64,000 nt of DNA from an uncultured Clostridia bacterium. GTDB lineage: Bacteria > CAYTYR01 > UBA6262. Of this stretch, positions 128-63,723 are shown piece by piece (the first letter of the stretch is position 1; each line of letters begins with the position of its first letter). The notes under the pieces were generated by a model. That model was not told the DNA's origin. It saw only the letters and a program-made list of their open reading frames with translations, and did no database searches. Both the position numbers and the translations under genes were made by a program. Location: positions 1-64,000 of the forward strand of contig CAYTYR010000009.1 in NCBI GenBank assembly GCA_964441745.1, given 5' to 3'.

Positions 128-210
128 CAGTTTTAAGTTTCCCCCAGCTGATTTGTCCTAAGGGACAAATCAAAGATGCGGGGACAGGTAAGTTTTGAAA
201 ACTAAAAATT
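128..210. repeat. AGTTTTA heptamer array interrupted by a 48-nt hairpin element
   Basis: Removing 141-188 gives cagttttaagttttaagttttg. The insert has the stem TGATTTGTCC-taag-GGACAAATCA (149-172) and ends in CAGG. Confidence 0.7.
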
Positions 211-231
211 GTTTTTCAAGAGGAGAAGGAA

Positions 232-1218
232 TTGGATTATCGTAAAGCAGGAGTGAACATCGACGCGGGTGAAAGACTGGTGGAAATGATCAAGCCATTA
301 GCTAGAGCCACAAGAAGGCCTGAGGTTATAGCTGATATCGGCGGGTTCAGCGCTTTATTTGACGGGTCGTTCAAAAATTACAAACACCCGGCGCTGGTTT
401 CTTCAACTGACGGAGTTGGCACTAAACTAAAACTGGCTTTTTTATTGAACAAACATAATACCGTAGGCATAGACCTGGTAGCCATGAGCGTCAATGATAT
501 TATCACCTGCGGCGCGGAACCGCTGTTCTTCCTGGATTATTTTGCCTGTGGTAAATTAGAACCGAAAATTGCTGCCAAGGTTATCGGCGGAATCACGGCC
601 GGATGTCAGCAGGCGCACTGCGCCTTGATTGGCGGGGAAACAGCTGAAATGCCGGGATTTTATCCCGCCGGTGAATATGATCTTGCCGGTTTTGTAGTCG
701 GAGTAGTTGATAAAAGCAAAATTATCGATGGCTCTAAAATAAAGCCGGGTGATATTGTTATGGGCCTGCCCTCCAGTGGACCGCATTCCAATGGCTATTC
801 CCTGATCAGAAAAGTATTCAATAATGCCGAATTAAAGAAATATCAGAAAGAGTTATTTGCACCTACGAAAATATATGTCCGTGAAGTTCTGAACGCTGTA
901 CGCTGTTTACCGAACGCTGTTAAAGGCATTGCCCATATAACTGGTGGCGGCGTCCTGGACAACATACCCCGTATTTTGCCAGATAATTGTCAGGTGACCA
1001 TTCGGGAAGGAAGCTGGAAGATACCTTCAATATTTATGACCATGCAGGAAAAAGGTAAGATCCCGTTTAAGGAAATGTACCGTACCTTTAATATGGGACT
1101 GGGGTTGGTCCTGATCGTTGCCAAACAAGATGTTTCCCGCCTCAAGACATTGCTAAAAGGCTCAGTCATCATTGGGCAGGTTGCTAAAGGCAATAAAGAA
1201 GAGGTAAGAATAATTTGA
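232..1218 (+). CDS. purM: phosphoribosylformylglycinamidine cyclo-ligase (AIR synthetase)
   Basis: DYRKAGVNI, TDGVGTK, GGETAEMPG, HSNGYSL and HITGGG motifs; TTG start after GGAG. Confidence 0.97.
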   Translation: MDYRKAGVNIDAGERLVEMIKPLARATRRPEVIADIGGFSALFDGSFKNYKHPALVSSTDGVGTKLKLAFLLNKHNTVGIDLVAMSVNDIITCGAEPLFFLDYFACGKLEPKIAAKVIGGITAGCQQAHCALIGGETAEMPGFYPAGEYDLAGFVVGVVDKSKIIDGSKIKPGDIVMGLPSSGPHSNGYSLIRKVFNNAELKKYQKELFAPTKIYVREVLNAVRCLPNAVKGIAHITGGGVLDNIPRILPDNCQVTIREGSWKIPSIFMTMQEKGKIPFKEMYRTFNMGLGLVLIVAKQDVSRLKTLLKGSVIIGQVAKGNKEEVRII

Positions 1219-1847
1219 AAAACATGCCTTTAAAAATAGGAGTGCTGGTTTCCGGAGGCGGCAGTAATTTGCAGGCTATCATAGATGCTGTCCGCCGGAA
1301 AAAAGTAAAAGCTGAGATCAGCATTGTTATTAGTAATAAAGCTGACGCCTACGCGCTGACCCGGGCGGGTAAGTACAAGATACCAACTTTATATATTGAT
1401 CCTAATAATTATCCTGACCGGGAAGCATATACCCGCGCTATTACCGATGAGCTAAAACAAAGAGGAGTAGGATTAGTATGCCTGGCCGGATTTATGAGCA
1501 TACTTACTCCGTATTTTGTCAAGAATTTCGCTTTACAGGCGATGAATATTCATCCTGCTTTACTGCCAGCTTTCGGCGGAGCAGGCATGTATGGCCATCA
1601 TGTTCATGAAGCAGTATTGAAATCAGGGGCAAAGTATTCTGGCTGCACCGTACATTTTGTAGACGAAGGGTGCGACACCGGACCGGTCATCGTTCAAGAG
1701 GTCGTTCCAGTAAAAGATGATGATACAGCTGATACCCTCGCCAAGCGTATCTTAAATATTGAGCATAAATTATATCCGCTGGCAATTAAGTATTTTGCTG
1801 AAGGCAAACTGCACGTAGTCGGCAAAAGAGTTTGGTTAAATAAATAA
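1215..1847 (+). CDS. purN: phosphoribosylglycinamide formyltransferase
   Basis: SGGGSNLQA, LAGFM, NIHPALLP and GCTVHFVDEGCDTGP motifs. Confidence 0.97.
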   Translation: MKNMPLKIGVLVSGGGSNLQAIIDAVRRKKVKAEISIVISNKADAYALTRAGKYKIPTLYIDPNNYPDREAYTRAITDELKQRGVGLVCLAGFMSILTPYFVKNFALQAMNIHPALLPAFGGAGMYGHHVHEAVLKSGAKYSGCTVHFVDEGCDTGPVIVQEVVPVKDDDTADTLAKRILNIEHKLYPLAIKYFAEGKLHVVGKRVWLNK

Positions 1848-3373
1848 TGAAATACTCACTGACTAAAAAACTAATTGTGACCTTATTGTTTCTGGCGCTG
1901 ATACCATTGATCATGGTTTCTTTTATTGCGATAGCTGATTTAAATAAGGTTTTTAAATTATTCAGTTTAAATACGGAAGCGGTCCAGCAAAATAATTATC
2001 AGGAATCAAAAAGAATTATCGAAGGGCTGGCTCAGCAGAATGTTAAGGAAATATCAGCTCATGTCGCCCAGGAAATTGAGCTTTATCTGGCGGCACACCC
2101 AAAGTTAAGTATGGCCGATTTGCAGCAACAAAAGAATTTTGAAAGAATCGCCTTGCAAAAAATAGGTGAAAACGGTTATACTGCTATATATGAGATACTT
2201 GGCGGCATCAACCGCTTTCATCCAAATGCAAAAATGGAAAATAAAAGTTATCTTGAGTTAAGCCAGGAGCTTCCGGAATTTGGAAACCTGATCCGGGAAC
2301 ATGTATCTGCTGGAGGAAAAGAGCTAGGCGGTTTTTATAGCTGGCGCGGGCAAAACGGCGAGATTAGAAAGAAATATATGTACTTGCGCGCAATTAATCT
2401 AAAAACAGCAGATCAGGTACAGCTTGGAGTAGCTGCCACTGCTTATGTAGATGAATATTCCATTATTATGACGGCCATAAATGCTCGGACCCAGAAAGTT
2501 TTACAGCAAACTCAAAAAGATTCACGAAAGATAATTAGTTCTATTTACCAACGCAATATTATAATTCTGTTGTCTCTGATCGTTGTCTTGGCCCTGGTTA
2601 TTTTGCTCTTTATCAAGCAATCCATCAAGCCGATCCGGCAGCTGATCGAAGAAATGAACAGTTTTTCCAGCGGTAATAAAGATATCGTTGTTAACATCAG
2701 CGCGCAGGATGAAATAGGACAGCTGGCCAGATCCTTTGCTGTCATGACCAATAAATTACTGGTTGAAGAATCAAAAACAAAAGAAGTTTATCTGGGCATG
2801 ATCGCTACTTTGGCCAAGGCCCTGGAAACAAAAGATGCTTATACTTCCGGACATACGGAAAGGGTTACTGAATACGCGGTTAAAATCGCCGAGTATATGG
2901 GGCTGAAATCAGAAGAAATTGAAGTGATCCACAAAGCATCGCTGATCCATGACATCGGCAAGATTGGTATCAAGTCGGAGATCCTGAATAAAAAGGAAAC
3001 CCTGAACGAAGAGGATTGGAAAGTGATCAAGACGCATCCGATCATGGGTATAAATATCCTGAGCCCGATGAAGATCCTGGGAAACATCTTGCCAATAATC
3101 AGATATCACCATGAGCGCTTTGACGGGACCGGATATCCCGAGGGATTATCCAGCGAAGAAATCCCGCTGGGAGCGAGGATTCTTTCCGTAGCTGATAGCT
3201 ATGATGCCATGACTAGCGACAGGCCATATCATGAAAGATTTCCTATCGGCATGGCGATCGCTGAGATCGAGAGAAATTCAGGCGCTCAATTTGATCCGGA
3301 CGTTGTCTCAGCCTTATTGGCTGTATTGAAAGAAGAAGAAGAAGAAGAAGAAGAAAATAAAAGAAAAGCTTGA
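1847..3373 (+). CDS. membrane sensor with Cache-like extracytoplasmic domain, HAMP and HD-GYP phosphodiesterase domain
   Basis: Two TM segments, HAMP (DEIGQLARSF), HTERV...HDIGKIG...HHERFDGTGYP; TAATG overlap with purN. Confidence 0.9.
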   Translation: MKYSLTKKLIVTLLFLALIPLIMVSFIAIADLNKVFKLFSLNTEAVQQNNYQESKRIIEGLAQQNVKEISAHVAQEIELYLAAHPKLSMADLQQQKNFERIALQKIGENGYTAIYEILGGINRFHPNAKMENKSYLELSQELPEFGNLIREHVSAGGKELGGFYSWRGQNGEIRKKYMYLRAINLKTADQVQLGVAATAYVDEYSIIMTAINARTQKVLQQTQKDSRKIISSIYQRNIIILLSLIVVLALVILLFIKQSIKPIRQLIEEMNSFSSGNKDIVVNISAQDEIGQLARSFAVMTNKLLVEESKTKEVYLGMIATLAKALETKDAYTSGHTERVTEYAVKIAEYMGLKSEEIEVIHKASLIHDIGKIGIKSEILNKKETLNEEDWKVIKTHPIMGINILSPMKILGNILPIIRYHHERFDGTGYPEGLSSEEIPLGARILSVADSYDAMTSDRPYHERFPIGMAIAEIERNSGAQFDPDVVSALLAVLKEEEEEEEENKRKA

Positions 3374-5159: not shown

Positions 5160-5237
5160 CGCTTATGGCTAATGGCTTATAGCAAATAGCAAGAGCTTGA
5201 AGCTTTTGCCATATGCAATAAGCTATATGCTATATGC
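5160..5237. repeat. inverted pair of degenerate heptamer arrays (GCTTATR / GCTATAT)
   Basis: gcttatg gctaatg gcttata gcaaata ... gccatat gcaataa gctatat gctatat. Confidence 0.75.
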
Positions 5238-5251
5238 GAATTGAGGTTCAG

Positions 5252-5737: not shown

Positions 5738-5784
5738 AAAACTTTCAACTTAACACTTAAAACTGTATTTTAAAAGGAGTTAAC

Positions 5785-7089: not shown

Positions 7090-7195
7090 AGGTGAAGGGT
7101 GTAGAAGTAGGTGTAGAAGTAAGTCTATAGTAAATAGATTAGAGCCTAACACCCACGCCCTAAGACCAAACTTACTTCCAAAACTTACACCTAAT
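7090..7195. repeat. family B intergenic element (GGTGTAGAAGTA arm and inverted CTTACTTCC arm)
   Basis: Similar copies at about 8533, 27143, 37049 and 42850. Confidence 0.75.
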
Positions 7196-7233
7196 AACTG
7201 CTATTTTACTTACTGTATTCTAAGGAGACTAAC

Positions 7234-8532: not shown

Positions 8533-8642
8533 AAGTCATAGGGTGAAAGTTGTAGAGGTAGGTATGGAAGTAGGTCTGAAGTCTTTGGTTTAGAGCCTGT
8601 TTGTTTGAATCGGTGTAATCTGTATTTGTAATCTGTGTAATC
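8533..8642. repeat. family B arm followed by family C (AATCKGTGTAATC x2)
   Basis: ggtatggaagtaggtctgaagtctttggttta; aatcggtgtaatc at 8608-8620 and aatctgtgtaatc at 8630-8642. Confidence 0.7.
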
Positions 8643-9775: not shown

Positions 9776-9787
9776 TACAAGAAATAA

Positions 9788-9911
9788 ATCCTAAATTCTA
9801 ATATCAAAATACTAAACAATATCTAATTTTCAAATAATGAAACTAATAGTTTAGAAGTTTTGAATTTAGAGTTTGATTATTGTTTAGAATTTAGAACTTA
9901 GAATTTAGAAA
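9788..9911. repeat. family D inverted heptamer arrays (CTAAWHW / TTTAGAA)
   Basis: ctaaatt ctaatat caaaata ctaaaca ... tttagaa tttagaa cttagaa tttagaa. Confidence 0.75.
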
Positions 9912-9922
9912 TTGGAGCATAC

Positions 9923-12900
9923 ATGCCAAAAAGACAGGATATTCATAAAGTATTGATCATTGGTTCAGGTCCGATCATTATCGGGCAAGCCTGCGAATTT
10001 GACTATTCCGGTACCCAGGCCTGCAAAGCTTTAAGAGAAGAAGGTTATGAAGTAGTTCTAGTAAATTCCAACCCGGCTACGATCATGACTGACCCGGGAA
10101 CAGCTGACCAAACCTATATCGAACCATTAACCCTGGAAAGCATCGAAAAGATCATTGAAAAAGAACGCCCTGACGCCTTATTACCGAATTTAGGCGGCCA
10201 AACCGGCCTGAATATGGCAGCCAGCCTGCACAAAGCCGGTATCCTGGATAAGTACAAAGTACAAATAATAGGGGTTAAAGCTGACGCAATTGAACGGGGT
10301 GAGGACCGGATCATTTTTAAGGAAACCATGCAGCGTCTGGATATATCTGTTCCTGTTTCCGAACCCTGTTATTCAGTAGAAGAAGCGGAAAAGATCGCTG
10401 AACGTTTAAAATATCCTGTTGTCCTGCGCCCGGCCTATACTATGGGCGGCACTGGCGGGGGTATTGTCTATAATGTGGAAGAGCTAAGAGAGGTAACAGC
10501 GCGCGGCCTGCTGGCCAGCTTGATCCATCAGGTACTGGTAGAAGAATCAGTCCTGGGCTGGGAAGAACTGGAATTGGAAGTTGTGCGAGATGATAAGGGC
10601 CAAAAAATAACAGTTTGCTTTATTGAAAATATTGATGCTATGGGAGTTCATACCGGTGATAGTTTCTGTGCCGCTCCGATGCTCACTGTCCCTGAAGCCT
10701 TGCAAAAAAGAATGCAGGATATGTCCTATAAGATCGTCGACGCGATCGGAGTTATCGGCGGCACCAATGTCCAGTTCGCCCATAATCCCAAGGATGACCG
10801 TTTGGTCGTCATCGAAATTAATCCCCGCACATCTCGTTCTTCGGCCCTGGCCTCCAAAGCCACAGGATTCCCCATCGCCCGTATTTCCACGAAACTGGCC
10901 AGCGGTATTACCATGGATGAAATTCCCTATTGGCGCAAGGGTACGCTGGATAAGTATGAACCATGGGGGAATTATGTTGTTATTAAATTTGCCCGTTGGG
11001 CTTTTGAAAAATTTCCCCAGGCCAAAGACCTGCTGGGCACCCAGATGAAAGCAGTGGGCGAAGTAATGTCCATCGGCAAAACTTTCAAGGAAGCCTTCCA
11101 GAAAGCTATCCGTTCCCTGGAAACAGGACGCTATGGCTTAGGAGGAGCTAAAGATTTTAAAGATCTCTCTTTGGACCAGCTGCAGGCCAGATTATCCCAA
11201 CCGTCCAGTGAAAGAGTCTTCTTGATGTATGAAGCCCTGCGCCAGGGGATGACCCCGGCCGAACTGCATGAGATCACCTATATCAATACCTATTTCATTA
11301 AGGAAATGCAGGAATTGGTTTTGTTCGAAGAAGAGATAGCAAAGTTCACTTTAACTGACCTGCCGAAGGATAAACTGATCAAAGCCAAGGAATGGGGTTT
11401 TGCCGATAAATATTTGGCGAAATTATTTAAAGTAAAAGAAATAGAAGTAAGGAAAAAGCGGCTGGCGGCCGGCAAAATATGCCGCTACGAAGCAGTCCCG
11501 GTCAGCGGCGTAGAGAATGCCGCCTATTATTACTCTACGTATTCTCCTGGCAAAGATGATGTCCCGGTATCAAAAAAGAAGAAGATCATGATCCTGGGAG
11601 GCGGTCCCAATCGTATCGGCCAGGGTATTGAATTTGATTATACGTGCGTACACGCCGCTTTTGCCCTGCGGGATGAAGGATATGAATCGATCATGGTCAA
11701 CTGTAATCCGGAAACTGTTTCTACCGACTATGATACCTCCAATAAACTTTATTTTGAGCCTTTGACCGTAGAAGATGTCTTAGCTATTTATGACAAGGAA
11801 AAACCAGAAGGCGTGATCGTCCAATTTGGCGGGCAAACGCCTCTTAATATCGCCCAGGAATTAAAAGATAACGGTGTCAAGATCCTGGGTACCACCCCGG
11901 AAAGCATCAGGCTCGCTGAGGACCGTGAATACTTCCGGGAAAAAATAATCGCCTTGAATATCCCCCAGCCGGAAAGCGGGACAGCACGTTCCCTGGAAGA
12001 AGCCCTGGCGATAGCAAATAAGATCGGTTATCCACTGATCGTACGACCGTCATTTGTCTTAGGCGGAAGGGGCATGGAAATTATTTACGAAGAAGAGCGG
12101 CTGAAAAAATATGCTACAGAAGCCATCAATGTCAGCCCGGAATATCCCATGCTGATCGACCGCTTCCTGGAGCAGGCTCTGGAAACAGAAGTAGACGCTT
12201 TGTGCGACGGCCAGGATACTTTTGTGGCGTCAGTGATGGAGCATATAGAATATGCCGGTGTCCATTCCGGTGACTCGGCGTGCGCCATACCGCCGCGCAC
12301 GATCAAGGAGAAACACCTGCAAACTATCGAACTATACACTAAACAGATCGCTGAAGAGCTTAAGGTGATCGGTTTGATCAATATCCAGTTTGCTATCGGT
12401 AACGATCAGGTTTATATTTTGGAAGCTAATCCCCGGGCGTCCAGGACCGTGCCCCTGGTCTCCAAGATCGCCGGCATTCAAACCGCGCATATCGCAACCC
12501 AGTTGATGCTGGGTAAAAAGCTTAAAGATTTTCCGGAGCTGAAAAAACGCAAGCTTCCCTATGTCGGGGTAAAAGAAGCTGTTTTCCCGTTCAACATGTT
12601 CCCGGAAGTAGATCCGATACTCGGCCCGGAAATGAGATCCACTGGGGAAGTGCTGGGTATTGCCAATACTTTTGGCCTGGCTTTTTATAAAGCCCAGGCC
12701 GCAACCGGCACAGAGTTGCCGGTGGAAGGGAATGTGCTGCTGACCGTAGCGGACAAGGACAAAAAAGCCTTGCTGCCCCTGGCCAGGAAACTGAAAGAAC
12801 TAGGGTTTAATATTCTGGCCACGGAAAATACCAGCAAGTTCCTGCTGGAAAATGGTATCGAAAATAACGAGATCAAAAAAATCAATGCCGGCCGTCCCAA

Positions 12901-13129
12901 TATTGCTGACGCCATAAAAAACCGGGAAATCCATATGATCATCAACACGCCTTTGGGAAAATCCAGTAAGGACGACGACAGTTTTATCAGGATCATGGCT
13001 ATCCAGCACAAGGTTCCTTATGTTACTTCCATCACTGCGGCTAATGCCAGTGTAGAGGGAATGGAAGCAGCCAAAAATAACAAAATGGCGCCAAAATCTT
13101 TGCAAGATTATTATAAGGATCTTAAATAA
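9923..13129 (+). CDS. carB: carbamoyl-phosphate synthase large subunit, paralogue 1
   Basis: [18 protein letters not shown], two ATP-grasp halves and a C-terminal MGS domain; 1068 aa. Confidence 0.97.
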   Translation: MPKRQDIHKVLIIGSGPIIIGQACEFDYSGTQACKALREEGYEVVLVNSNPATIMTDPGTADQTYIEPLTLESIEKIIEKERPDALLPNLGGQTGLNMAASLHKAGILDKYKVQIIGVKADAIERGEDRIIFKETMQRLDISVPVSEPCYSVEEAEKIAERLKYPVVLRPAYTMGGTGGGIVYNVEELREVTARGLLASLIHQVLVEESVLGWEELELEVVRDDKGQKITVCFIENIDAMGVHTGDSFCAAPMLTVPEALQKRMQDMSYKIVDAIGVIGGTNVQFAHNPKDDRLVVIEINPRTSRSSALASKATGFPIARISTKLASGITMDEIPYWRKGTLDKYEPWGNYVVIKFARWAFEKFPQAKDLLGTQMKAVGEVMSIGKTFKEAFQKAIRSLETGRYGLGGAKDFKDLSLDQLQARLSQPSSERVFLMYEALRQGMTPAELHEITYINTYFIKEMQELVLFEEEIAKFTLTDLPKDKLIKAKEWGFADKYLAKLFKVKEIEVRKKRLAAGKICRYEAVPVSGVENAAYYYSTYSPGKDDVPVSKKKKIMILGGGPNRIGQGIEFDYTCVHAAFALRDEGYESIMVNCNPETVSTDYDTSNKLYFEPLTVEDVLAIYDKEKPEGVIVQFGGQTPLNIAQELKDNGVKILGTTPESIRLAEDREYFREKIIALNIPQPESGTARSLEEALAIANKIGYPLIVRPSFVLGGRGMEIIYEEERLKKYATEAINVSPEYPMLIDRFLEQALETEVDALCDGQDTFVASVMEHIEYAGVHSGDSACAIPPRTIKEKHLQTIELYTKQIAEELKVIGLINIQFAIGNDQVYILEANPRASRTVPLVSKIAGIQTAHIATQLMLGKKLKDFPELKKRKLPYVGVKEAVFPFNMFPEVDPILGPEMRSTGEVLGIANTFGLAFYKAQAATGTELPVEGNVLLTVADKDKKALLPLARKLKELGFNILATENTSKFLLENGIENNEIKKINAGRPNIADAIKNREIHMIINTPLGKSSKDDDSFIRIMAIQHKVPYVTSITAANASVEGMEAAKNNKMAPKSLQDYYKDLK

Positions 13130-13143
13130 TATAAAGGAAGATC

Positions 13144-16100
13144 ATGCCTAAAAGAGAAGATTTAAAAAAGATCATGCTTATCGGTTCCGGCCCGATCGTC
13201 ATCGGCCAAGCTTGTGAATTCGATTATTCCGGTACGCAGGCCTGCAAGGCGCTCAAAGAAGAGGGCTATGAAATCATCCTGGTAAATTCTAATCCAGCAA
13301 CGATCATGACTGATCCGCAGATCAGCGACCGTACCTATATTGAACCGCTGACCGTAGAAGTGCTGGAAAAGATCATTGCCAAAGAAAGGCCTGATGCTTT
13401 ATTGCCGACTATCGGCGGGCAGACAGCCTTGAATCTGACGGTAGCTCTGGTCGAAAAAGGGATTATTGACAAGTATAAGGTCGAACTCATCGGGGCGAAT
13501 TTTGAAGCTATCAAGCGCGCTGAAGACCGCAGTATGTTCAAACGCACCATGCAGGATATTGGCATGGACCTGCCGCGCAGCGGCTATGCTCACAATTTGA
13601 CCGAATCCCTGGAAATAGCCAAGCAAGTCGGCTTTCCGCTCGTGATCAGACCTTCATTTACCTTGGGAGGCACTGGCGGCAGCATTGCCTATAATATAGA
13701 AGAATTTATGGACCTGGTAACTTTTGCCCTTGAGCACAGCCCGGTCAGTGAAGTGCTGATTGAAGAATCAGTCCTGGGTTGGAAAGAATTCGAACTCGAA
13801 GTGATGAGAGACAAAAAAGATAATGTGGTTATTGTCTGCTCGATAGAAAACTTTGACCCGATGGGTATACATACCGGCGACAGCATAACTGTAGCGCCGG
13901 CCCAAACCTTAAGCGACAAAGAATACCAGAAGATGCGCGACGCGGCAGTCAAAATTATCAGGGCTATCGGCGTAGACACCGGGGGCAGTAATATACAGTT
14001 CGGGCTAAATCCTTTAACCGGCAGGATGGTGGTCATTGAAATGAATCCGCGGGTTTCCCGTTCTTCAGCGCTGGCGTCAAAAGCTACTGGTTTCCCGATC
14101 GCCAAAATCGCGGCCAAGCTGGCAGTAGGGTATACGCTTGATGAAATTCCCAATGACATTACCAAAAAAACTCCGGCTTGTTTCGAACCATCGATAGATT
14201 ATGTAGTCACTAAAATTCCCAGGTTTGCTTTTGAAAAATTTGCCGGCGCGGATGCGCGGCTGGGAATCTCCATGAAAAGCGTCGGGGAAGTAATGGCCAT
14301 TGGCCGGACCTTCAAAGAATCATTGCAGAAAGCTATCCGCGGCCTGGAGATCGGCCGTCACGGTCTGGGTAACGACAATCATGCCCTGGAAAAAGAAATC
14401 AAGACCGCCTTGAAATCAACTGAACGCCGTGAGGACATGCTGGATAAAATAAAACATTTTATTAAACAGCCTACGAGCGAAAGGATCTTTTTCATTAAAT
14501 ATGCTTTACAGAATGGCTTCCCGGTCGCTGATATAGCGCTGGCCAGCTCGATCGACCCCTGGTTTATCTATAATATTAAGGAGTTGTGCGATTTTGAAAT
14601 GACCCTGCGTCATGCAAATTTTATTAAACAAAAGAAGCCACAGCAGTTAGCGTTATTATCGCAGGCCAAGAAACTGGGATATTCTGATTATCAGTTAGCT
14701 GAATTATTATCAGTCAAAGAAAGCATGATCACCCGGTTGCGTCAGAAAAACAATCTATATCCCTGTTACAAACTGGTTGATACCTGCGCCGCTGAATTCC
14801 AGGCTTATACTCCTTACTATTATTCCACTTATGAAACAGAAGATGAAAAGACAGAGCAGAAATCAAAGAAAAAGAAGATCATGATCCTGGGCGGGGGACC
14901 GAATCGCATCGGACAAGGCATTGAATTTGATTATTGCTGCGTCCATGCCGCTTTTGCCCTGGAAGATATGGGTTACGAAACGATCATGGTTAATTGTAAT
15001 CCGGAAACTGTTTCTACCGATTATGATACCAGCGATCGCCTTTATTTTGAACCAGTGACGCTGGAAGATGTCTTGAATATTAATTACCGTGAAAAGCCGG
15101 ATGGGGTTATAGTGCAGTTTGGCGGGCAGACACCCTTGAATTTGGCGCTGGCTTTAAAAAAGAATGGGGTCAAGATCATTGGTACTTCACCTGACAACAT
15201 TGACCTGGCTGAAGACCGTAAACGTTTCGGTCGTCTGCTTAATAAACTAAAGATCCCGCAAGCGGAAAATGGCGCCGCCATGAGCTTCAGTGAAGCTAAA
15301 ACAATTGCCGCCAAGATCGGTTATCCGGTCATGGTACGGCCCAGCTATGTGCTCGGCGGCCGGGCGATGGAAATAGTTTATGAAGAACCCAGCCTCGAAA
15401 ATTATATCCGTAAAGCCAAAGACATTTCGCCTAAGCATCCGATACTGATCGATAAATTCCTGTCTGATGCTATTGAAGTTGATTGTGACGCGATATCAGA
15501 CGGTAAAGACGTCTATATTGGCGGCATCATGGAGCATATTGAAGAGGCGGGTATCCACTCGGGGGACAGTGCCTGCGCTTTACCGCCATACACGCTGACC
15601 GCGGAGCAAATTGAAACGATCAGGAATTACACCACCAAACTGGCCAGATCATTACAGGTGATCGGCCTGCTTAATATTCAGTACGCTATTAAGGATAATA
15701 TTATTTACGTCCTCGAAGTGAATCCACGCGCTTCGCGCACCGTACCTTTTGTCAGTAAAGCTACGGGAATACCTTTAGCTAAAATTGCCGCCGCCTGTAT
15801 GGTCGGCAAAAAATTGAAAGACCTGGATCTGCCACTAGCGGGAAAAACCATGACCTATACCGCGGTAAAAGAAGCGGTCCTCCCTTTTATCAAATTCCCC
15901 GGAATAGACAGCATCCTGGGCCCGGAGATGAAATCTACCGGAGAAGTGATGGGTATCGATGCTAATTTCGGATTGGCTTTTGCCAAGTCCCAAATGGCTG
16001 CCGGTAGTTCACTGCCCTTATCAGGAAATGTCTTTCTCAGTGTCAATGACCGGGATAAGCAACGGATCGCTCCAGTCGCCAAAAAATTACTGGATCTTGG

Positions 16101-16413
16101 TTTTAAAATTATTTCTACACGCAAAACCTGCGCCTACCTGAAAAACCAGGGATTTGACGTAGAAGAAGTAGCCAAAATAGGGGAAGGCCGTCCGGACATG
16201 GTTGATATTATTAAGAATAAGCAGGTTGACCTGATTATCAATACCCCCAAAGGAACCCGTTCACGCAGCGATGGCTATGTTATCCGTCAAAATGCGCTGA
16301 TCCATAACGTCCCGTTCATTACCACCTTTTTCGGGGCCGAAGCAGCTGTCGACGGGATTGTGGCATTGCGCACCCAGGGTATAACCGTAAAACCACTGCA
16401 GGAATATTATTAA
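13144..16413 (+). CDS. carB: carbamoyl-phosphate synthase large subunit, paralogue 2
   Basis: [36 protein letters not shown] and [10 protein letters not shown] motifs; 1089 aa. Confidence 0.97.
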
Positions 16414-16492
16414 TAGCGGATAGCGGGTAGCGGTAAGCGTATAGAAATGCTGAAAGAATTACTTTACGCTATACGCTAAACGCTTTACGCTA
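16414..16492. repeat. family A inverted heptamer arrays (TAGCGKN / CTWWACG)
   Basis: tagcgga tagcggg tagcggt aagcgta tag ... ctttacg ctatacg ctaaacg ctttacg cta. Confidence 0.85.
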
Positions 16493-41703: not shown

Positions 41704-41738
41704 TTAAATACGAATAATAAATATAGATTAGGTAATAT

Positions 41739-42260
41739 ATGGATTTACTAAAACAAATTAAAGAGCGGCGATCGATCAGGAAATACAAAACCAGGCAAGT
41801 CCCTGATTCACTGGTCAGCCAGATACTGGAAGCCGGTCGTTGGGCGCCATCAGGATTAAACAACCAGCCCTGGCGCTTTTTAGTGGTCAAGGACACAGCC
41901 ACGAAAAACAAGCTGGCTGGATTTACCAAGTATAGCCAAATCATTAAGAACGCAAACACGGTCATCCTGGTATTCATGGATAACCAGGTCACCTACAACC
42001 GTGATAAGGACTTGATGGCTATGGGGGCCTGTATCCAGAATATGTTGTTGGCAGCTCACAGCCTGGGTCTGGGCGCTTGTTGGCTGGGAGAAATACTGAA
42101 CCATAAGAAAGCAGTATCATCCTATTTGGAATTACCGGTTGATCTTGAATTAATGGTTGTCATAAGCCTGGGCTATAGCGCTGATAAATTAAAAAAAGGA
42201 AAACGGCAGGCGCTTAAGAGTTTAATGATAAAAGGGGAGCAATCATGCCAAACGAAGTAA
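41739..42260 (+). CDS. nitroreductase-family protein
   Basis: RRSIRKY, APSGLNNQPW and LGLGACW motifs. Confidence 0.92.
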   Translation: MDLLKQIKERRSIRKYKTRQVPDSLVSQILEAGRWAPSGLNNQPWRFLVVKDTATKNKLAGFTKYSQIIKNANTVILVFMDNQVTYNRDKDLMAMGACIQNMLLAAHSLGLGACWLGEILNHKKAVSSYLELPVDLELMVVISLGYSADKLKKGKRQALKSLMIKGEQSCQTK

Positions 42261-42844: not shown

Positions 42845-42849
42845 AAATA

Positions 42850-42965
42850 GAAGTAGGGTGTTGGGTTTAGAAGTAGGTATAGTCTAAAGTCTCAGGAAGT
42901 TGGGCTTGAAGCCTTAAAACCTACATCTTACTTCCATACTTACTTCCAAGACCTACAACCTGCTT
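42850..42965. repeat. family B intergenic element
   Basis: gggtttagaagtaggtatagtctaaagtc...cttacttccatacttacttccaagacctacaacc. Confidence 0.75.
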
Positions 42966-42978
42966 CTTCGAGGTTAAG

Positions 42979-43794
42979 ATGTGGCAGAAACTAAAACATA
43001 ACCGCTTAGCTGTATCAGGCCTGGTCATTATAACCATACTGGTAGCAGTGGCCTTATTGGCGCCTAAGATCGTACCATATGAACCAACCAGCCAGAACAT
43101 CATGGAACGGCTGCAAAAGCCATCGACCAGGCATTGGTTAGGTACGGATGAACTGGGCCGGGATGTGCTCTCACGCATCATCTATGGCGCCAGGATCTCG
43201 CTTTCCGTGGGTTTTATTGCCGTGGGTATCGCTGTTATTATTGGAGTGTTTTTTGGCGCTTTAGCGGGATTTTACGGCGGCTGGATCGATTCCCTGATCA
43301 TGCGCTTTGTCGATATTATGTTTTGCTTTCCCTCATTTTTTCTCATCCTGATGATCATCGCGGTCCTGGGACCAAATATCTATAATGTGATGATCATTAT
43401 CGGCATTACCAGCTGGCCGGGTATCGCCCGGTTGGTCAGGGGAGAGATCTTATCCGTCAAAGAGAGGGAATATGTTTATTCGGCTAAAGCTATCGGCGCT
43501 TCTGACCTGAGGATAATATTCAGGCATATCCTGCCCAATGCTTTGGGACCTGTTTTGGTCGCCGCCACTCTGGGTATAGCTGACGCGATTCTGGTAGAGT
43601 CAGGATTAAGTTTTCTCGGGTTAGGCGTACAACCGCCGATGCCCAGCTGGGGCAATATCCTGACTTCAGGTAAAGACTATATTGAATCTGCCTGGTGGTT
43701 GACTTTATTCCCCGGACTGGCGATATTGGTCACGATACTATCATATAATCTGGTGGGAGAGGGTTTAAGGGAAATAATTGACCCGAAACTTTAA
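42979..43794 (+). CDS. peptide ABC transporter permease (OppC/DppC type)
   Basis: HWLGTDELGRDVLSR and LSFLGLGVQPPMPSWG motifs. Confidence 0.93.
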   Translation: MWQKLKHNRLAVSGLVIITILVAVALLAPKIVPYEPTSQNIMERLQKPSTRHWLGTDELGRDVLSRIIYGARISLSVGFIAVGIAVIIGVFFGALAGFYGGWIDSLIMRFVDIMFCFPSFFLILMIIAVLGPNIYNVMIIIGITSWPGIARLVRGEILSVKEREYVYSAKAIGASDLRIIFRHILPNALGPVLVAATLGIADAILVESGLSFLGLGVQPPMPSWGNILTSGKDYIESAWWLTLFPGLAILVTILSYNLVGEGLREIIDPKL

Positions 43795-43798
43795 ATTC

Positions 43799-43828
43799 GG
43801 CGGATAGCGTGTAGCGGATAGCGTATAG
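43799..43828. repeat. family A heptamer array
   Basis: ggcgga tagcgtg tagcgga tagcgta tag. Confidence 0.8.
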
Positions 43829-43841
43829 AAAAGGCAAATTA

Positions 43842-44813
43842 ATGCAGAATTTATTAGAGATAAATAATTTGAATGTGGAATATTATAAAGGCGGACAAAC
43901 TATTCCGGCAGTCAGGGGAGTGCGCCTTACTATCAAGCCGGGAGAGATCATCGGCCTGGTGGGAGAATCTGGCTGCGGCAAATCTACCATTGCGCTATCT
44001 ATGATGCGCCTGATTCCGCCGAAGCAGGGCAGAATTACTTCAGGACAAATCCTTTTTGCTGACCAGGATATAGTGAGTATGTCAGAAGACGAATGCCGCG
44101 ACTTTCGCGGTAATAAGATCGGGATGGTTTTCCAGGAAGCGTTTTCCAGCTTGAATCCTGTGTTCCGGGTAGGAGACCAGATCAAAGAAGCGATCATGCT
44201 TCATCATCCTGATTTTAGCAGTCAAAAAAGCAGACAAAGAGCCATTGAAGCTTTACAACTGGTCAATATCCCGCAGCCTGAAGAACGATATGACTCTTAT
44301 CCGCACCAATTATCCGGCGGCATGCAGCAACGGGCCATGTTGGCCATGGCCTTGGCCTGTCATCCTCAACTGCTGATCGCTGATGAACCGACGACGGCCC
44401 TGGATGTCACTATCCAGGCGCAAATACTGGACCTGCTGGTCAAGTTCAGGAAAGACTTGAACATGTCCATCCTGCTGATCACCCACAACCTGGCTATTGT
44501 CAGCCAGATCGCTGATGCTGTAGCTATCATGTATGCGGGAGAGATCGTGGAGCTTGGCCCGAAAGACAGAATATTTACCAATCCATTGCATCCGTACACG
44601 ATCGGCCTGCTTAACTCGGTACCGGATATTGAAACTAAAAAAGACCAGTTGTCACAGATCAGGGGCCAGATACCTGATCCCGCTGCTTTGCCAAAAGGTT
44701 GTCCGTTCCATCCGCGGTGTCCCGCAGTTATGGATTCTTGCCGGAATAGCGATCCAGTGTTAGTCGAACAAGAAAAACAGCATTTTGTACAATGTCATAA
44801 ATATCAAGGATAA
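43842..44813 (+). CDS. peptide ABC transporter ATPase (OppD/DppD type)
   Basis: GESGCGKST, LSGGMQQR, ADEPTTALD and GCPFHPRC motifs. Confidence 0.94.
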   Translation: MQNLLEINNLNVEYYKGGQTIPAVRGVRLTIKPGEIIGLVGESGCGKSTIALSMMRLIPPKQGRITSGQILFADQDIVSMSEDECRDFRGNKIGMVFQEAFSSLNPVFRVGDQIKEAIMLHHPDFSSQKSRQRAIEALQLVNIPQPEERYDSYPHQLSGGMQQRAMLAMALACHPQLLIADEPTTALDVTIQAQILDLLVKFRKDLNMSILLITHNLAIVSQIADAVAIMYAGEIVELGPKDRIFTNPLHPYTIGLLNSVPDIETKKDQLSQIRGQIPDPAALPKGCPFHPRCPAVMDSCRNSDPVLVEQEKQHFVQCHKYQG

Positions 44814-44815
44814 AA

Positions 44816-45511
44816 ATGGAAAAACATCCTATTGGATTATCAGAAAGTCATATCATCGCTATTATGAACGGCAAACGGGTACTGATCAGCACGGGAGTGC
44901 CCATCAGTGTTGGAGACACGCCGGAAATCATGATCCTGGGCCAGCGCTATGATCTGGAAAAAAAGCTCTTAGGCCTGGATATAAAACAAATAGGATCTGC
45001 CTTAAAAACAGACATTAACGCTCTTTTAGGCATGGATATATTAAGCAAATTCGTTTTTTATATTTCCCATAGTATTGAAGCCATCATTTTCAGCGATTTC
45101 TTCATCAACTTTAAAGAAGATATGCGTGAACTGCCCATTAATATGGAATTTAATTTGCCAATCGTGACTGTAAAAATGGGCGGGGTAGATGTGAATATGA
45201 CCCTGGACACTGGTTCTAAATTATCGTACCTGGACGCTAGTTTACTGGCTGGCATGAAAAATGTCGGGACTTTGGAAGTTTTTTATCCCGGCTGTGATAC
45301 CATGGTCACGGAAATATTCCATCTTCCACTTGAGCTCAGGAGCAAAACGATGGATATTCATTTTGGCATGCTGCCTGATGTCTTGCTGAAAAACTTGTCT
45401 CGGACCGGATGTGCCGGCATACTTGGATCAGAAATATTCCGTTATTTCAACATCCAATTCTGCCTGAAAAAGAGCACCCTCTGGCTGGTCGAAAAAGGCA
45501 AAGCCAGGTAA
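44816..45511 (+). CDS. two-lobed retropepsin-like (aspartyl protease fold) protein
   Basis: LDTGS...GILG in the C-lobe; ISTG...ALLG in the N-lobe. Confidence 0.6.
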   Translation: MEKHPIGLSESHIIAIMNGKRVLISTGVPISVGDTPEIMILGQRYDLEKKLLGLDIKQIGSALKTDINALLGMDILSKFVFYISHSIEAIIFSDFFINFKEDMRELPINMEFNLPIVTVKMGGVDVNMTLDTGSKLSYLDASLLAGMKNVGTLEVFYPGCDTMVTEIFHLPLELRSKTMDIHFGMLPDVLLKNLSRTGCAGILGSEIFRYFNIQFCLKKSTLWLVEKGKAR

Positions 45512-45538
45512 GAAACTTTGTTGCAGAAGGAATCTATA

Positions 45539-45781
45539 ATGTTAAAAGATCCTGGAGCAAAAAAATGGTACTGGAGAATCTCGACCCTGATAGTCGCCGT
45601 ATTATCGGTCGGACCGCTGGCTTTGCCACTTATTTGGTTCAATCCTTATCTGCGCCGTAACCAAAAGATCGTTTATTCCATCATTGTTATCGTGGTTAGC
45701 TATCTCCTGATCATGTGGACAATCAACGCTTACGATAAATATATTAAAGTATATGATGATATATTGAAGCAAATTCCCTGA
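45539..45781 (+). CDS. small two-TM hypothetical protein
   Basis: KWYW...VGPLALPLIWFNP; ATG after GAAGGA. Confidence 0.7.
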   Translation: MLKDPGAKKWYWRISTLIVAVLSVGPLALPLIWFNPYLRRNQKIVYSIIVIVVSYLLIMWTINAYDKYIKVYDDILKQIP

Positions 45782-45799
45782 CCTGGGGACAAAGGATAT

Positions 45800-46759
45800 A
45801 TGTCGGGATTATTGGAAGTCAAAAATTTAACAAAATACTACCCGGTGGAAAAGGGTGTTTTTAAGCAAACAGTCGGTATGATCAAGGCAGTGGATGGGGT
45901 CAATTTCTCTATTGCGGAAAAAGAAACCCTGGGACTGGTCGGAGAATCTGGCTGCGGTAAGACTACCTGTGGCCGGCTGGTCGCCAATTTGCTCAAGCCG
46001 ACTGCAGGGCAGGCCTTGTTTGAAGAAGAAAACATCTACTCATTCCAGGGAAAGGATCTTAATAATTTCCGTAAAAAGGCGCAAATTATCTTTCAGGACC
46101 CATTCTCATCCCTGGATCCGCGGCAGAGTATTTATGATATCATCACTGAACCGATCAGGATCCATCACCTCTATCCGCGGAAAGAGATCAATACTAAAGT
46201 AGAGGAGTTGCTGCAACTGGTTGGCTTGCCTCATGATATAGTCAAAGGTTATCCGCATCAATTGAGCGGCGGGCAGCGCCAACGCATCGGCCTGGCCAGG
46301 ATACTTTCCCTTAATCCTAAATTGATTGTAGCCGATGAACCGGTTTCTTCGCTGGATATCTCCATCCAGGCGCAGGTAATAAACCTGTTCAAAGACCTTC
46401 AGAATAAATACAGTTTAAGCTATCTATTCATCTCACATGATCTGGGAGTGGTGAAGCATATTGCCCACAAAATAGCGGTAATGTACCTGGGAAAGATCGT
46501 CGAATTGGCCGATAGTGATGAACTATTTGCCAAACCGTATCATCCTTATACTAAAATACTATTACAAAGTATTCCTTCTATTAAAACCACAAAAAATGCT
46601 ACAATAACCACAAAAGAAAATATTCAAAGCGATCTTCCGGTCAGAGGATGCGCTTTTTATACGCGGTGTATAAAAGCCGCCAACCGCTGCCGGGAGATGG
46701 AACCAATACTTGAGCCAAAAGGAGCAAAACATTTTGTCTGTTGCTGGTATCCTGAATAA
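45800..46759 (+). CDS. peptide ABC transporter ATPase (OppF/DppF type)
   Basis: KAVDGV, GESGCGKTT, FQDPFSSLDPR and LSGGQRQR motifs. Confidence 0.94.
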   Translation: MSGLLEVKNLTKYYPVEKGVFKQTVGMIKAVDGVNFSIAEKETLGLVGESGCGKTTCGRLVANLLKPTAGQALFEEENIYSFQGKDLNNFRKKAQIIFQDPFSSLDPRQSIYDIITEPIRIHHLYPRKEINTKVEELLQLVGLPHDIVKGYPHQLSGGQRQRIGLARILSLNPKLIVADEPVSSLDISIQAQVINLFKDLQNKYSLSYLFISHDLGVVKHIAHKIAVMYLGKIVELADSDELFAKPYHPYTKILLQSIPSIKTTKNATITTKENIQSDLPVRGCAFYTRCIKAANRCREMEPILEPKGAKHFVCCWYPE

Positions 46760-48233
46760 ATTAAATCATCTTAGACATCCCCATCCGTTTTACCTGGTTG
46801 GCGGCATAGTACGCGACATCCTGCTGCCGCGGGATACTAAAGACATTGACCTGGTCTGCAAAAACGCTAAAGTCCTGGCCCTTAAATTCGCCAAATCCAC
46901 CGGCGGCAGGTATTTCCCTTTGGATGAAGAAAATAAAATTTACCGCGTTGTCCTAAAGTCAGCGGTCAGCGGTCAGCGGTCAGCGGAACAGTATTGTTTT
47001 GATTTTGCGGAATTACGCGGCAATTCTATCGAAGCAGACCTGGCGCTGCGGGATTTTACGATCGATGCGATGGCTATGCAGTTAGTCAACGGTCCCGCCA
47101 CTAGGACATCGTCGGGCAAGCAGCGATCAGCAGTCAGTAGCAAAAGCATTATAGATCCATTCAACGGACAAAAAGATCTACAGAATAAAACTATCCGCAT
47201 GGTGGGTAAAGATATATATAAGGATGACCCGTTGCGCATGATGCGGGCTTTCCGGCTAGCCGCAGTATTAGGATTTAAAATAGAAAAAAATACTTTAGGG
47301 CTGATCTCCCGGCAGGCAGCATTGATCAAGAAGGTTTCACTGGAAAGAGTACGTGAAGAACTTATTAAAATATTATCCTGCCCGGAGAGCACGGCCTATA
47401 TTAAAGCCATGGATCGGCAAAAGCTATTGTCAGTCCTCATACCGGAAATCAAGAAATTAAAAAAAGCCGCCAGTAATTTCTATGGCCCAGACGGTGTTTG
47501 GCGCCATACTCTTTCCGGAATGGAATATTTAGAAACCATTATTCTTAAAATAAACAAATATATTCCCAGCTATGCGCCTAAAATAAACCAGCATCTGAAT
47601 ACCCGGGTGATTACAGATGTCCCGCGCTGGGTAACCCTGAAGGTGGCTTATCTCCTGCATGATTTCGGCAAACCAGACACAGAAACTAAAGAAGGCCGGC
47701 GCAGCAGATTCTATGGCCATGAATTAGCCAGCGCCCTTTATGCTGATATAATACTGACCCGCCTGCATTTTTCTAATAAAGAAATACACACTATTAAAAA
47801 TATTATTATGAACCACATGCGGCCTGGCAATTTATCGGCGCTGGCACAAATAACTGACAAGGCGATCTATCGCTATTTCCGTGACCTGAAAGAAGAAGGG
47901 CTGGATACCCTGATCTTATCAATTGCTGATGCCTATACCACGGAAGACACGGTGATCACCAGGAAAAAACAGGATATTTATCCTGTTAACGCTAAACAGC
48001 ATCTTAAACGGGTACGGGCTATCATTAAAAGGTATTATACGGAACATAAGCAGATAGTGCCAAAGAACCTGCTTAATGGCCACGAAATCATGACCAGGTT
48101 CAGGCTGGCCGAAGGGCCGCTGATCGGCCAGATGATCAATAATTTAAAAGAAGCCCAGGCGCAAAAACTGGTTACCAACAAAATGCAGGCGTATGAATAT
48201 TGTAAAAAAATGTTGACCGCTAAAGAAAAATAA
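46734..48233 (+). CDS. tRNA nucleotidyltransferase / poly(A) polymerase family protein with HD domain
   Basis: VGGIVRD, DIDL, RDFTIDAMA, DDPLRMMRA, ERVREE and LHDFGK motifs; TTG start after GGAG. Confidence 0.9.
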   Translation: MSVAGILNKLNHLRHPHPFYLVGGIVRDILLPRDTKDIDLVCKNAKVLALKFAKSTGGRYFPLDEENKIYRVVLKSAVSGQRSAEQYCFDFAELRGNSIEADLALRDFTIDAMAMQLVNGPATRTSSGKQRSAVSSKSIIDPFNGQKDLQNKTIRMVGKDIYKDDPLRMMRAFRLAAVLGFKIEKNTLGLISRQAALIKKVSLERVREELIKILSCPESTAYIKAMDRQKLLSVLIPEIKKLKKAASNFYGPDGVWRHTLSGMEYLETIILKINKYIPSYAPKINQHLNTRVITDVPRWVTLKVAYLLHDFGKPDTETKEGRRSRFYGHELASALYADIILTRLHFSNKEIHTIKNIIMNHMRPGNLSALAQITDKAIYRYFRDLKEEGLDTLILSIADAYTTEDTVITRKKQDIYPVNAKQHLKRVRAIIKRYYTEHKQIVPKNLLNGHEIMTRFRLAEGPLIGQMINNLKEAQAQKLVTNKMQAYEYCKKMLTAKEK

Positions 48234-48497: not shown

Positions 48498-48568
48498 GCG
48501 GGTGTAGTTCAATGGTAGAATGGAAGCTTCCCAAGCTTCATACGTGGGTTCGATTCCCATCACCCGCT
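48498..48568 (+). tRNA. tRNA-Gly(CCC), CCA not encoded
   Basis: Acceptor GCGGGTG/CACCCGC, anticodon arm GAAGC-TTCCCAA-GCTTC, T arm GTGGG-TTCGATT-CCCAT. Confidence 0.96.
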
Positions 48569-48694
48569 TTTATAATCTAATAAAGGAATCGAAGCCAAGT
48601 CGAGCGCCATTGGTCCGAGCGAGACTGGCCGGCGACGGGTGAGCGGCGTGAATACGACGCGATGGAGGAGGATTCCCATCACCCGCTTTTATAA
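48552..48694 (+). repeat. 24-bp direct repeat of the tRNA 3' end (48552-48575 and 48671-48694)
   Basis: GATTCCCATCACCCGCTTTTATAA occurs twice, 119 bp apart. Confidence 0.9.
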
Positions 48695-48703: not shown

Positions 48704-48790
48704 CAGTTATAAGTTTTGAGTTATAAATTTTAAGTTTAGGTAAAAGTATTTCACTATAATTCAAAACTCAAAATTCAAAATTTAAAACTA
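48704..48790. repeat. inverted heptamer arrays (AGTTWTR / AAAAYTC)
   Basis: agttata agttttg agttata aatttta ... aaaactc aaaattc aaaattt aaaact. Confidence 0.75.
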
Positions 48791-48807
48791 TCTCAACTGG
48801 GGGGTTA

Positions 48808-52617: not shown

Positions 52618-52653
52618 GATTACACAGATTATGAAAAGAGATTACACAGATTT
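52618..52653. repeat. family C repeat GATTACACAGATT x2 straddling the btuF start codon
   Basis: Copies at 52618-52630 and 52640-52652. Confidence 0.8.
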
Positions 52654-57217: not shown

Positions 57218-57331
57218 GATTACACAGATTTTAAAAGATGATTACCCGCCAAAGAGCGCCGGCGGGCGCGGCACAGATTTTATACATTTAGTTTTTAATC
57301 GGTGTAATCTCTCTTAATAATCGGTGTAATC
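57218..57331. repeat. family C inverted pair with a 27-nt hairpin insert
   Basis: gattacacagattt; gatta[57245-57271]cacagattt; then aatcggtgtaatc x2. Confidence 0.8.
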
Positions 57332-59787: not shown

Positions 59788-59790
59788 ATA

Positions 59791-59820
59791 AGCGGATAGC
59801 GTATAGCGGATAGCGTATAG
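59791..59820. repeat. family A heptamer array
   Basis: agcgga tagcgta tagcgga tagcgta tag. Confidence 0.8.
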
Positions 59821-63352: not shown

Positions 63353-63393
63353 TTCTTGACTTTAAGTTAAATTATTCCTATAATTAGTTTAAT

Positions 63394-63630
63394 ATGTTTA
63401 TGCCTAAATTATTACCGCAAGACGAAAAACAAATCGACCAAAAATTCCGCCTGGTGGCAATGCAGGAACAGCAGGACGAGGAGAAACGGATAGTTAAGGA
63501 TTACTCGTTCGTCCTGGGCCTGATCATGCTGATCATCGGATTATTGATCTATACCATGAGTATTATTTTTGGCGGAGCGATGATGGCTATGGGATTGGCA
63601 GCCATAATCTATCGTTTCTTACCATGGTAG
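63394..63630 (+). CDS. small two-TM hypothetical protein
   Basis: ORF 9 nt after TTGACT-17bp-TATAAT (63356-63384). Confidence 0.6.
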   Translation: MFMPKLLPQDEKQIDQKFRLVAMQEQQDEEKRIVKDYSFVLGLIMLIIGLLIYTMSIIFGGAMMAMGLAAIIYRFLPW

Positions 63631-63637
63631 TTAGAAC

Positions 63638-63723
63638 GATTAACCAGATTACTTAATTGTATTTGCTCTAATCGGTGTAATCCCTGTCCGCCTCTGGAGG
63701 AGCATTCAGAAATCGGTGTAATC
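63638..63723. repeat. family C repeats with CCTG-TCCGCCTCTGGAGGA hairpin insert
   Basis: aatcggtgtaatc at 63670-63682 and 63711-63723; insert at 63683-63701. Confidence 0.7.

Follow-up and report, generated by a model that had tools for sequence, protein, structure and literature searches.

The first 64,000 nucleotides of contig CAYTYR010000009.1, from an uncultured bacterium (this whole stretch is called the window below), carry a series of short-period tandem arrays in the spacers between genes, and these arrays are the subject of the present analysis. The window has a G+C content of ∼45%, with 92% coding and 8% non-coding sequence, and 51 of 52 non-overlapping open reading frames (ORFs; picked by length) lie on the + strand. 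The gene content, assigned by screening the 54 main ORFs with NCBIfam and 18 further ORFs with Pfam, is that of ordinary housekeeping and includes purM, purN, purH, purB, purA, carA, two tandem carB genes and alaS, together with an interrupted oppABCDF set, btuFCD-btuB, carboxynorspermidine genes, dksA, rmuC and a single tRNA gene, tRNA-Gly. The closest AlaS proteins in a large protein collection are 70–89% identical and are labelled, where a label is given, ‘bacterium’ or ‘Elusimicrobia bacterium’.

Tandem Repeats Finder (TRF) reports arrays with a period of 7 nt at coordinates originally predicted. A periodicity scan of our own detects eleven versus 0.05 expected from shuffled sequences, ten of them intergenic, and the analysis confirms the original prediction of degenerate short-period arrays that belong to several families and are often arranged as inverted pairs. 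The one array in coding sequence, a perfect (GTCAGCG)x4, belongs to the ORF of a CCA-adding enzyme (46952–46991). The encoded segment can be aligned to a solved homologue with no more than a one-residue gap, and so is not an insertion; one 7 nt unit gained or lost there would shift the frame. A comparison sample of at least 80 loci (1.3 Mb) was obtained from one genome scan with the window purA as the query (38–55% identity to the window purA). None of the 80 unrelated loci listed has gene order in common with the window, and together they hold 29 arrays, or 1.4 per 64 kb versus 11 in the window, a density ∼8 times lower. The window contains ∼19 elements of at least six unit types, and ∼19 of its 30 gaps longer than 40 nt carry one; 12 elements are inverted pairs and seven are single arms. 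Each arm comprises three to six degenerate units of 6–8 nt, which, when printed in register, display a conserved core of 4–5 nt and two or three variable positions per unit.

Placement and folding of the elements

The distance from the upstream stop codon to the element is 0–12 nt in 15 of the 17 measurable cases, the remaining two being an element at 39 nt and one that overlaps the end of a DUF167 ORF. From the end of the element to the next start codon the distance is 7–33 nt, also in 15 of 17 measurable cases, with the Shine–Dalgarno sequence located in the remaining tail. The layout originally predicted, in which a stop codon is followed by an array, a spacer, the inverted array, a Shine–Dalgarno sequence and an ATG, is found for 12 of the 19 elements and is reduced to a single arm in the other seven. 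Elements lie inside evident operons at the purB/purA, carA/carB and oppC/oppD junctions, in keeping with the expectation of hairpins within long operons. The idea that the elements close all three reading frames was considered and rejected, as both alternative frames are closed within 30 nt at six of 18 junctions compared with 4.7 expected (p ∼0.31).

Folding was evaluated for 25 intergenic stretches against shuffled controls, with 40 random windows as additional controls. Nine of the 25 stretches have z ≤ −4, whereas the minimum among the random windows is −3.5, and paired elements fold well below their shuffled controls. The arms of the 12 pairs are separated by spacers of ∼11–66 nt, and the stems are ‘beaded’, with helices of 4–6 bp that alternate with small internal loops, since the variable unit positions do not pair. 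For single arms, folding is no stronger than in shuffles (seven of seven, with minimum free energies of 0 to −4.6 kcal/mol and z of −0.18 to +0.79). No run of T residues follows any element, in agreement with the original prediction, and none is overlapped by a terminator-like call, the tails holding the Shine–Dalgarno sequence instead of a T-run. A canonical terminator is found elsewhere in the window (31981–32007), followed by a promoter-like site. The earlier conclusion, which set the arrays apart from ordinary terminators and from fresh slippage microsatellites, is upheld. No element matches an Rfam family at E values up to 0.05.

Unit families and their dispersal

Four families, designated A, B, T and C, are dispersed in multiple copies, and each of the remaining families occupies one locus within the window. 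All elements are given on the + strand apart from one family C cluster. Family A (TAGCGKN) is represented by six arms at five loci. Two of these arms (16414–16444 and 16462–16492) form an inverted pair between the second carB gene and alaS (16414–16492; −32.1 kcal/mol, z −5.29), which starts on the first base after the stop codon. The two carB paralogues upstream of it (9923–16413) are both full-length (1068 and 1089 residues) and are separated by 14 nt. The other family A arms stand alone. An unstructured reverse arm precedes the HIT gene (37872–37906; z +0.50), and forward arms are found at 38470–38493 (z +0.52), within which the DUF167 ORF (38250–38486) ends, at the oppC/oppD junction (43798–43828; z +0.79) and at the end of the norspermidine operon (59790–59820; z −0.18), where a promoter-like site is located at 59856. 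The forward arms all finish in a common ...TAGCGTATAG motif.

Family B is a palindromic element of ∼100–110 nt with a conserved loop and arms built from GTAGRW units with a 6/12 nt period. It is present at five junctions, one of them as a half copy. The full copies lie between purB and purA (7090–7200; z −3.43), after the NAD(P)H-hydrate epimerase gene (27141–27237; z −3.97), between a DUF4416 gene and an ORF that matches the C-terminus of YchF (37049–37150; z −2.80) and before oppC (42850–42962; −44.2 kcal/mol, z −4.15). Both arms are retained in four of the four, providing terminal inverted repeats with stem-loop potential. At the purA/carA junction (8541–8642) only the left arm is present (8541–8576), accompanied by two family C 13-mers (8608 and 8630), and this stretch forms no hairpin (z +1.94). 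The tetranucleotide GTAG occurs inside the family B units and some family A units, not as a single terminal unpaired tag. At 27132–27146 and 37040–37056 the family B elements start immediately after a stop codon with AAG in front of it, so that the gene end AAGTAA itself reads like a family B unit; at these two sites the stop codon may be overlapped or supplied by the element. The ORF directly downstream of the second of these elements (37177–37866) encodes 229 residues, with the YchF match (a C-terminal TGS-type domain) confined to the last ∼95 and the GTPase domain missing.

Family T (CTAAA... / ...TTTAGAA) is found at two loci as homologous inverted pairs, one after carA at the carA/carB junction (9786–9913; 36 nt, 83% complementary; z −4.24) and the other directly after oppA (36386–36510; 42 nt, 76%). 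The latter has a 16 nt string in common with the array that follows an oppA homologue in an Omnitrophota contig of the comparison sample (locus L059, described below). Family C is a 13-mer with nine copies at ≤1 mismatch; at ≤2 mismatches there are 11 matches versus 1.56 expected. It had been listed among the tandem arrays as a 13 nt family, but it forms no 13 nt tandem array: neighbouring copies follow one another at intervals of 22 nt, or 41 nt at one site. In addition to the two copies at the purA/carA junction, 13-mer matches identify two reverse copies at the start of btuF (52618–52652, − strand) and two copies 41 nt apart near the end of the window (63670–63723), and one reverse and two forward 13-mers form a hairpin after btuB (57218–57331; −53.3 kcal/mol, z −7.24). 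Upstream of btuFCD-btuB, the segment 52413–52552 matches the AdoCbl riboswitch with 47.5 bits versus the Rfam gathering threshold of 50 bits (local-search E value 1e-7) and is probably a genuine riboswitch. Polarity is constant within families: the G/T-rich arm comes first in five of five family B elements, and CTAAA comes first in both family T copies as well as in L059.

The remaining elements differ considerably in strength. A GCTTATR inverted pair is located between purH and a gene resembling dCMP deaminase (5161–5239; −30.8 kcal/mol, z −6.45), and an 8 nt family (CAGGNNAN / CCTGATNA) contributes one forward and two reverse arms before oppB (39981–40125; −59.1 kcal/mol, z −5.69). A single AAAACTT array, the reverse form of AGTTTTA, precedes purB (5738–5764; TRF period 7, 3.9 copies, 70% matches; z +0.52), and an AGTTWTA inverted pair lies after tRNA-Gly and before a phoH2-like gene (48705–48791; z −1.87). 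Directly before this pair, the 3′ end of tRNA-Gly(CCC) is repeated as an exact direct repeat of 24 nt (48552 and 48671, within 48498–48694), which resembles a scar left when an element integrated at the tRNA gene. Most of the array coordinates originally predicted were reproduced, and three correspond to weak elements: the AGTTTTA-type hairpin at 128, upstream of purM (120–215; two units per arm; z −2.76; period-7 match 0.71 over 14 nt only), the T-like pair at 24726, with approximately two units per arm and two small inner hairpins (24733–24845; z −4.09), and the single purine-rich array of ∼8 nt units at 41112, after oppB (41108–41152; period-8 match 0.52; minimum free energy 0 kcal/mol). 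The opp genes, in the order A-B-C-D-F (34725–46759), are split by DUF4416, the ychF C-terminal ORF, HIT, DUF167, YqeY, macro-Nudix and PEBP genes, two nitroreductase genes and two unknowns, all unrelated to the set.

The same architecture was observed among the 80 loci listed in Omnitrophota (L059, L077), Planctomycetia (L067, L023), Nitrospirota (L080), Verrucomicrobiae (L061) and two Bacteroidota, Chitinophagales (L036) and Chryseobacterium (L019). Families A, B and C at ≤1 mismatch are absent from these loci except for one family C match in L046, and family T is the only one common to the window and another locus, L059. The L059 oppA homologue is 52% identical to that of the window and is followed by CTCTAAA-type arrays with the common 16 nt string. 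Elsewhere in L059 (8134–8192), two genes are separated by an array of seven near-perfect CCCTAAA units, and a G-rich partner arm is located immediately upstream of it; the unit is identical to the plant-type telomere repeat, presumably by coincidence. The junction from clpP to an aminotransferase gene carries arrays in both L077 (4568–4711) and L067 (5790–5825), with different units, and an array pair with a third unit sequence precedes the homologous class-V aminotransferase gene in L080 (6768–6909). The recurrence of one architecture in several phyla, sometimes with another unit at a comparable junction, suggests that one general process lies behind scattered reports of such arrays. Inverted heptamer arrays also occur inside ORFs, in pabB (L036:11706–11808, with ∼36 extra residues relative to the profile), a gene for an Lhr-type helicase (L005:6076–6378) and recO (L023:7817–7900), in three other phyla; by analogy these resemble palindromic elements that lie in frame in Rickettsia genes, and also the repeats of the repetitive extragenic palindromic (REP) type reported from within repair genes. 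A Cloacimonadota contig (L011) that bears an array right after purA also contains an ORF (12314–12877) with a sub-threshold match to the REP-associated tyrosine transposase (RAYT; 65 versus 80 bits).

Origin and possible role of the arrays

Our preferred reading, to which we assign a probability of about 0.5, is that the elements are dispersed intercistronic repeats in a non-cyanobacterial lineage, akin to REP elements and to the short tandemly repeated repetitive (STRR) elements, and that the paired forms act as intercistronic RNA stem-loops. Two features of the arms bear on their origin. TRF reports 14 nt periods with 92–100% match at 16466, 43800, 59791 and 9884 and 88% at 48705, which argues that arrays grow locally by duplication of two-unit blocks. 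Arm 16414 matches the reverse complement of arm 37874, 21 kb away, at 29 of 31 positions versus only 23 of 31 for its own partner, and in none of seven hairpins from the multi-copy families does the right arm find its best partner in the left arm of its own site; these results argue that arms are copied between sites and follow the family consensus. Under the preferred reading, arrays would grow by duplication of one or two units, leaving the 14 nt higher-order period, and arms would be copied between junctions by transposition or gene conversion, with copies surviving only where they fall in the short interval that separates a stop codon from the ribosome-binding site after it. Where two arms are inverted, the polycistronic mRNA would be able to form a long beaded stem-loop that lacks a U-tract. 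Such a stem-loop would most likely be an intercistronic stability or processing element, for example a barrier to 3′ exonucleases or a site for RNase III or RNase E, and would uncouple the decay and translation of adjacent cistrons rather than end transcription. Single arms would be structure-free spacers ahead of the next ribosome-binding site. What the analysis shows is that the arrays exist and are enriched, where they are placed, how their families are built, that they can fold and that terminator features are lacking; read-through transcription, the role at the RNA level and the mode of spread are what we infer.

Several observations weigh against this reading. Seven of the 19 elements are single arms that are unable to fold. 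Compensatory pairs in family B number one of 25 (four sequences), which together with the 0 of 7 own-partner result indicates no visible selection for keeping the two arms of a site paired. Only eight of 13 hairpins are more stable as the + strand than as the − strand, so there is no signal of RNA-specific selection. Neither a transposase nor a RAYT was found among the 54 + 18 window ORFs, and no target-site duplication is evident by eye in the 10 nt flanks of 12 elements. Among the other genomes, the L080 array is located in a divergent promoter region, and those of L005, L023 and L036 lie inside ORFs.

Some of these points are shared by two other explanations. Each array could be a row of sites for one periodic protein that binds DNA or mRNA, the inverted pairs being a by-product of two-sided binding. 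A conserved unit core with two or three freely varying positions is in keeping with such a platform, as are arms that are nearer to the family consensus than to their own partners, single arms that fill the same slot as pairs, family C copies that are 22 nt (about two helical turns) apart, and the persistence of the 16 nt string in L059, where OppA has diverged to just 52% identity. Similar proposals appear in the accounts of the TAACTGA repeats (PMC4679880) and of the paired sites of Geobacter metallireducens (PMC2700814). The at least six unrelated unit sequences in 64 kb, however, would require several binding proteins, the flanking genes have no common functional theme, a period of 7 bp does not hold one face of the DNA helix and no candidate binding protein was identified; we consider binding platforms rather unlikely. 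Alternatively, slippage and quasi-palindrome template switching might build arrays in spacers, where selection is weak, without any function or dedicated mobility. The degeneracy of the arrays, the local duplication indicated by the 14 nt period, the lack of strand asymmetry in folding and the lack of compensatory evolution between arms all suit such neutral debris, and the introduction of PMC4679880 cites an earlier survey in which, for most prokaryotic genomes, no class of long simple repeats is as abundant as that with heptanucleotide units. This explanation nevertheless seems distinctly unlikely in view of the recurrence of identical unit sequences, their arm ends conserved, at as many as five junctions, the 29 of 31 match between arms 21 kb apart, the sharing of family T with L059, the ∼8-fold excess in density over the 80 loci listed and the consistent polarity within families. 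Termination is very unlikely indeed. Stable hairpins that begin right after stop codons could stop or pause RNA polymerase between genes, as terminators or attenuators lacking a U-tract; one family A arm (59790) is placed at a true operon end upstream of the promoter-like site at 59856, and for one STRR hairpin termination has been considered possible (PMC2670836). Yet no element bears a terminator-like call or a T-run, the organism has at least one canonical terminator (31981–32007), the genes downstream of the purB/purA, carA/carB and oppC/oppD junctions have no promoter-like sites, and the operon-end element is a single arm that cannot fold.

The original prediction regarded the hairpins as possible empty sites of a repeat-bounded cassette system, in which the arms would be recombination sites, genes between forward and reverse arms mobile cargo and hairpins with short loops empty sites. 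One suggestive case for it is the oppA junction, at which arms of the same unit are 41 nt apart in the window and 958 nt apart in L059, where an M48 peptidase gene with no counterpart in the window lies between them. HIT-DUF167 (37872–38493) lies between reverse and forward family A arms, btuFCDB (4.6 kb) lies between inverted family C clusters (52618–52652 and 57218–57331, with copies 22 nt apart in each), array elements border two of the three unrelated gene blocks that break the opp operon, and arms 21 kb apart are nearly perfect complements. In the window itself the idea found no support. None of the genes that the original prediction had linked to similar arrays in other genomes turned up: no four-helix-bundle (TIGR02436) or GxxExxY genes were found among the 54 + 18 window ORFs, or among 79 ORFs in or near array-bearing stretches of the other genomes (10 + 22 screened with Pfam and 47 with NCBIfam, which lists the TIGR-numbered models, the Pfam counterparts being those that we take to correspond), and no integrase or transposase gene was found in the window ORFs. 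Literature searches found no paper that connects arrays of this kind with TIGR02436 genes, GxxExxY genes or Omnitrophota. Core sites of the attC type have the consensus RYYYAAC / GTTRRRY, and none was detected within ∼10–14 nt on either side of the element ends in 12 hairpins; target duplications are likewise not evident by eye in 12 elements. The flanked genes are housekeeping genes, including carB, alaS, purA and oppA. Arrays are missing from the borders of the third block that interrupts opp, the arms around HIT-DUF167 run reverse then forward, contrary to the order expected from insertion into a hairpin loop, and the filled-versus-empty comparison is a single case that could represent two independent single arms. 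A foreign origin of the flanked genes was also considered and rejected, as GC and GC3 are unremarkable.

Because it has one suggestive case and otherwise circumstantial layouts, we hold the cassette interpretation to be highly doubtful. We attach similarly little probability to a broader form of it, in which the arrays would be joints of repeat-mediated shuffling of housekeeping genes and same-family arms would recombine to move genes or blocks into and out of operons. If true, this would explain the broken opp operon, the bracketed HIT-DUF167 and btuFCDB and the presence in L059 of the M48 peptidase gene at a position that an empty hairpin occupies in the window; unit families would then be common to distantly related genomes, and the system would amount to a chromosome-wide, integrase-independent analogue of a super-integron.

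Comparison with known repeat systems

The elements belong to a kind of bacterial repeat that is already known, here densely represented in a lineage new to it. Their closest counterparts in architecture include the STRR sequences of cyanobacteria, tandem units of ∼7 bp that occur in multiple copies in intergenic spacers and form hairpins between co-transcribed genes, as described for hupS and hupL in Nostoc and Anabaena (PMC2670836). In that account their function is unknown, with transcript stability or translational coupling proposed (PMC2670836). The window presents the corresponding features in ten intergenic period-7 arrays and in the dispersal of units over several loci (five for family A, five for family B and two for family T). 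The gene content of the window, in contrast, has no cyanobacterial signature and the nearest AlaS proteins are not labelled as cyanobacterial. Further differences from STRR sequences are the units themselves, which appear to differ from the canonical ones, the presence of 6, 8 and 12 nt periods beside 7 and a very high density of ∼19 elements in 64 kb. STRR sequences also occur inside the gene for RNase P RNA, according to the title of a reference given in PMC4046671, a parallel to the arrays found here inside ORFs of other phyla.

The class 3 sites of G. metallireducens, described as five tandem heptanucleotides paired on opposite strands (PMC2700814), resemble the window elements in having approximately five degenerate heptanucleotides in inverted pairs at a variable distance, several classes per genome and locations between genes of biosynthetic operons such as proB-proA. 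They differ in that their units are unrelated and their authors interpret them as sites bound by global regulators or by IHF/HU (PMC2700814). The TAACTGA repeats of marine Beggiatoaceae, cyanobacteria and some Bacteroidetes, the function of which is given as unknown (PMC4679880), are likewise intergenic heptamer arrays of two to six units just upstream of start codons with a scattered phylogeny, and strains are reported to differ by indels in 7 nt steps. Unlike the window elements, they are nearly all direct (169 direct sets and one indirect), have one dominant unit and overlap the ribosome-binding region (PMC4679880), whereas the window arrays leave the Shine–Dalgarno sequence free.

REP and REPIN elements are palindromes with a GTAG or CGTC tag, associated with RAYT transposases. 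They are described as lying downstream of coding regions and between co-directional genes, often as inverted dimers able to form larger folds, with some copies inside genes, notably those of replication and repair, and as being plausibly transcribed (PMC3733652; PMC3337134). The 12 inverted pairs with short spacers are similar in this respect. A REP unit is, however, a palindrome of 20–40 bp, whereas the window arms are non-palindromic arrays that do not fold alone, and no RAYT is encoded by the 54 + 18 window ORFs. Family B, with its ∼100–110 nt, terminal inverted repeats, conserved loop and five junctions, is comparable to miniature inverted-repeat transposable elements such as Correia/NEMIS, ERIC and RPE. 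Correia and ERIC transcripts, a precedent for such an effect, are reported to form long stem-loops that affect mRNA via RNase III or RNase E, and RPE elements to insert in frame into genes (PMC2229807). The family B arms differ from these elements in being built of short tandem units, with no target-site duplication seen by eye. Integron attC sites are set apart by the lack of core sites in all 12 hairpins, the lack of an integrase in the window and the nature of the flanked genes (carB, alaS, purA and oppA), and Rho-independent terminators by the U-tract that no element has. Heptamer-type arrays have thus far been reported separately from cyanobacteria, Beggiatoaceae, Bacteroidetes and Geobacter, with function or origin established for none, and a genome this dense in arrays would be well suited to distinguish between RNA processing, protein binding and recombination.

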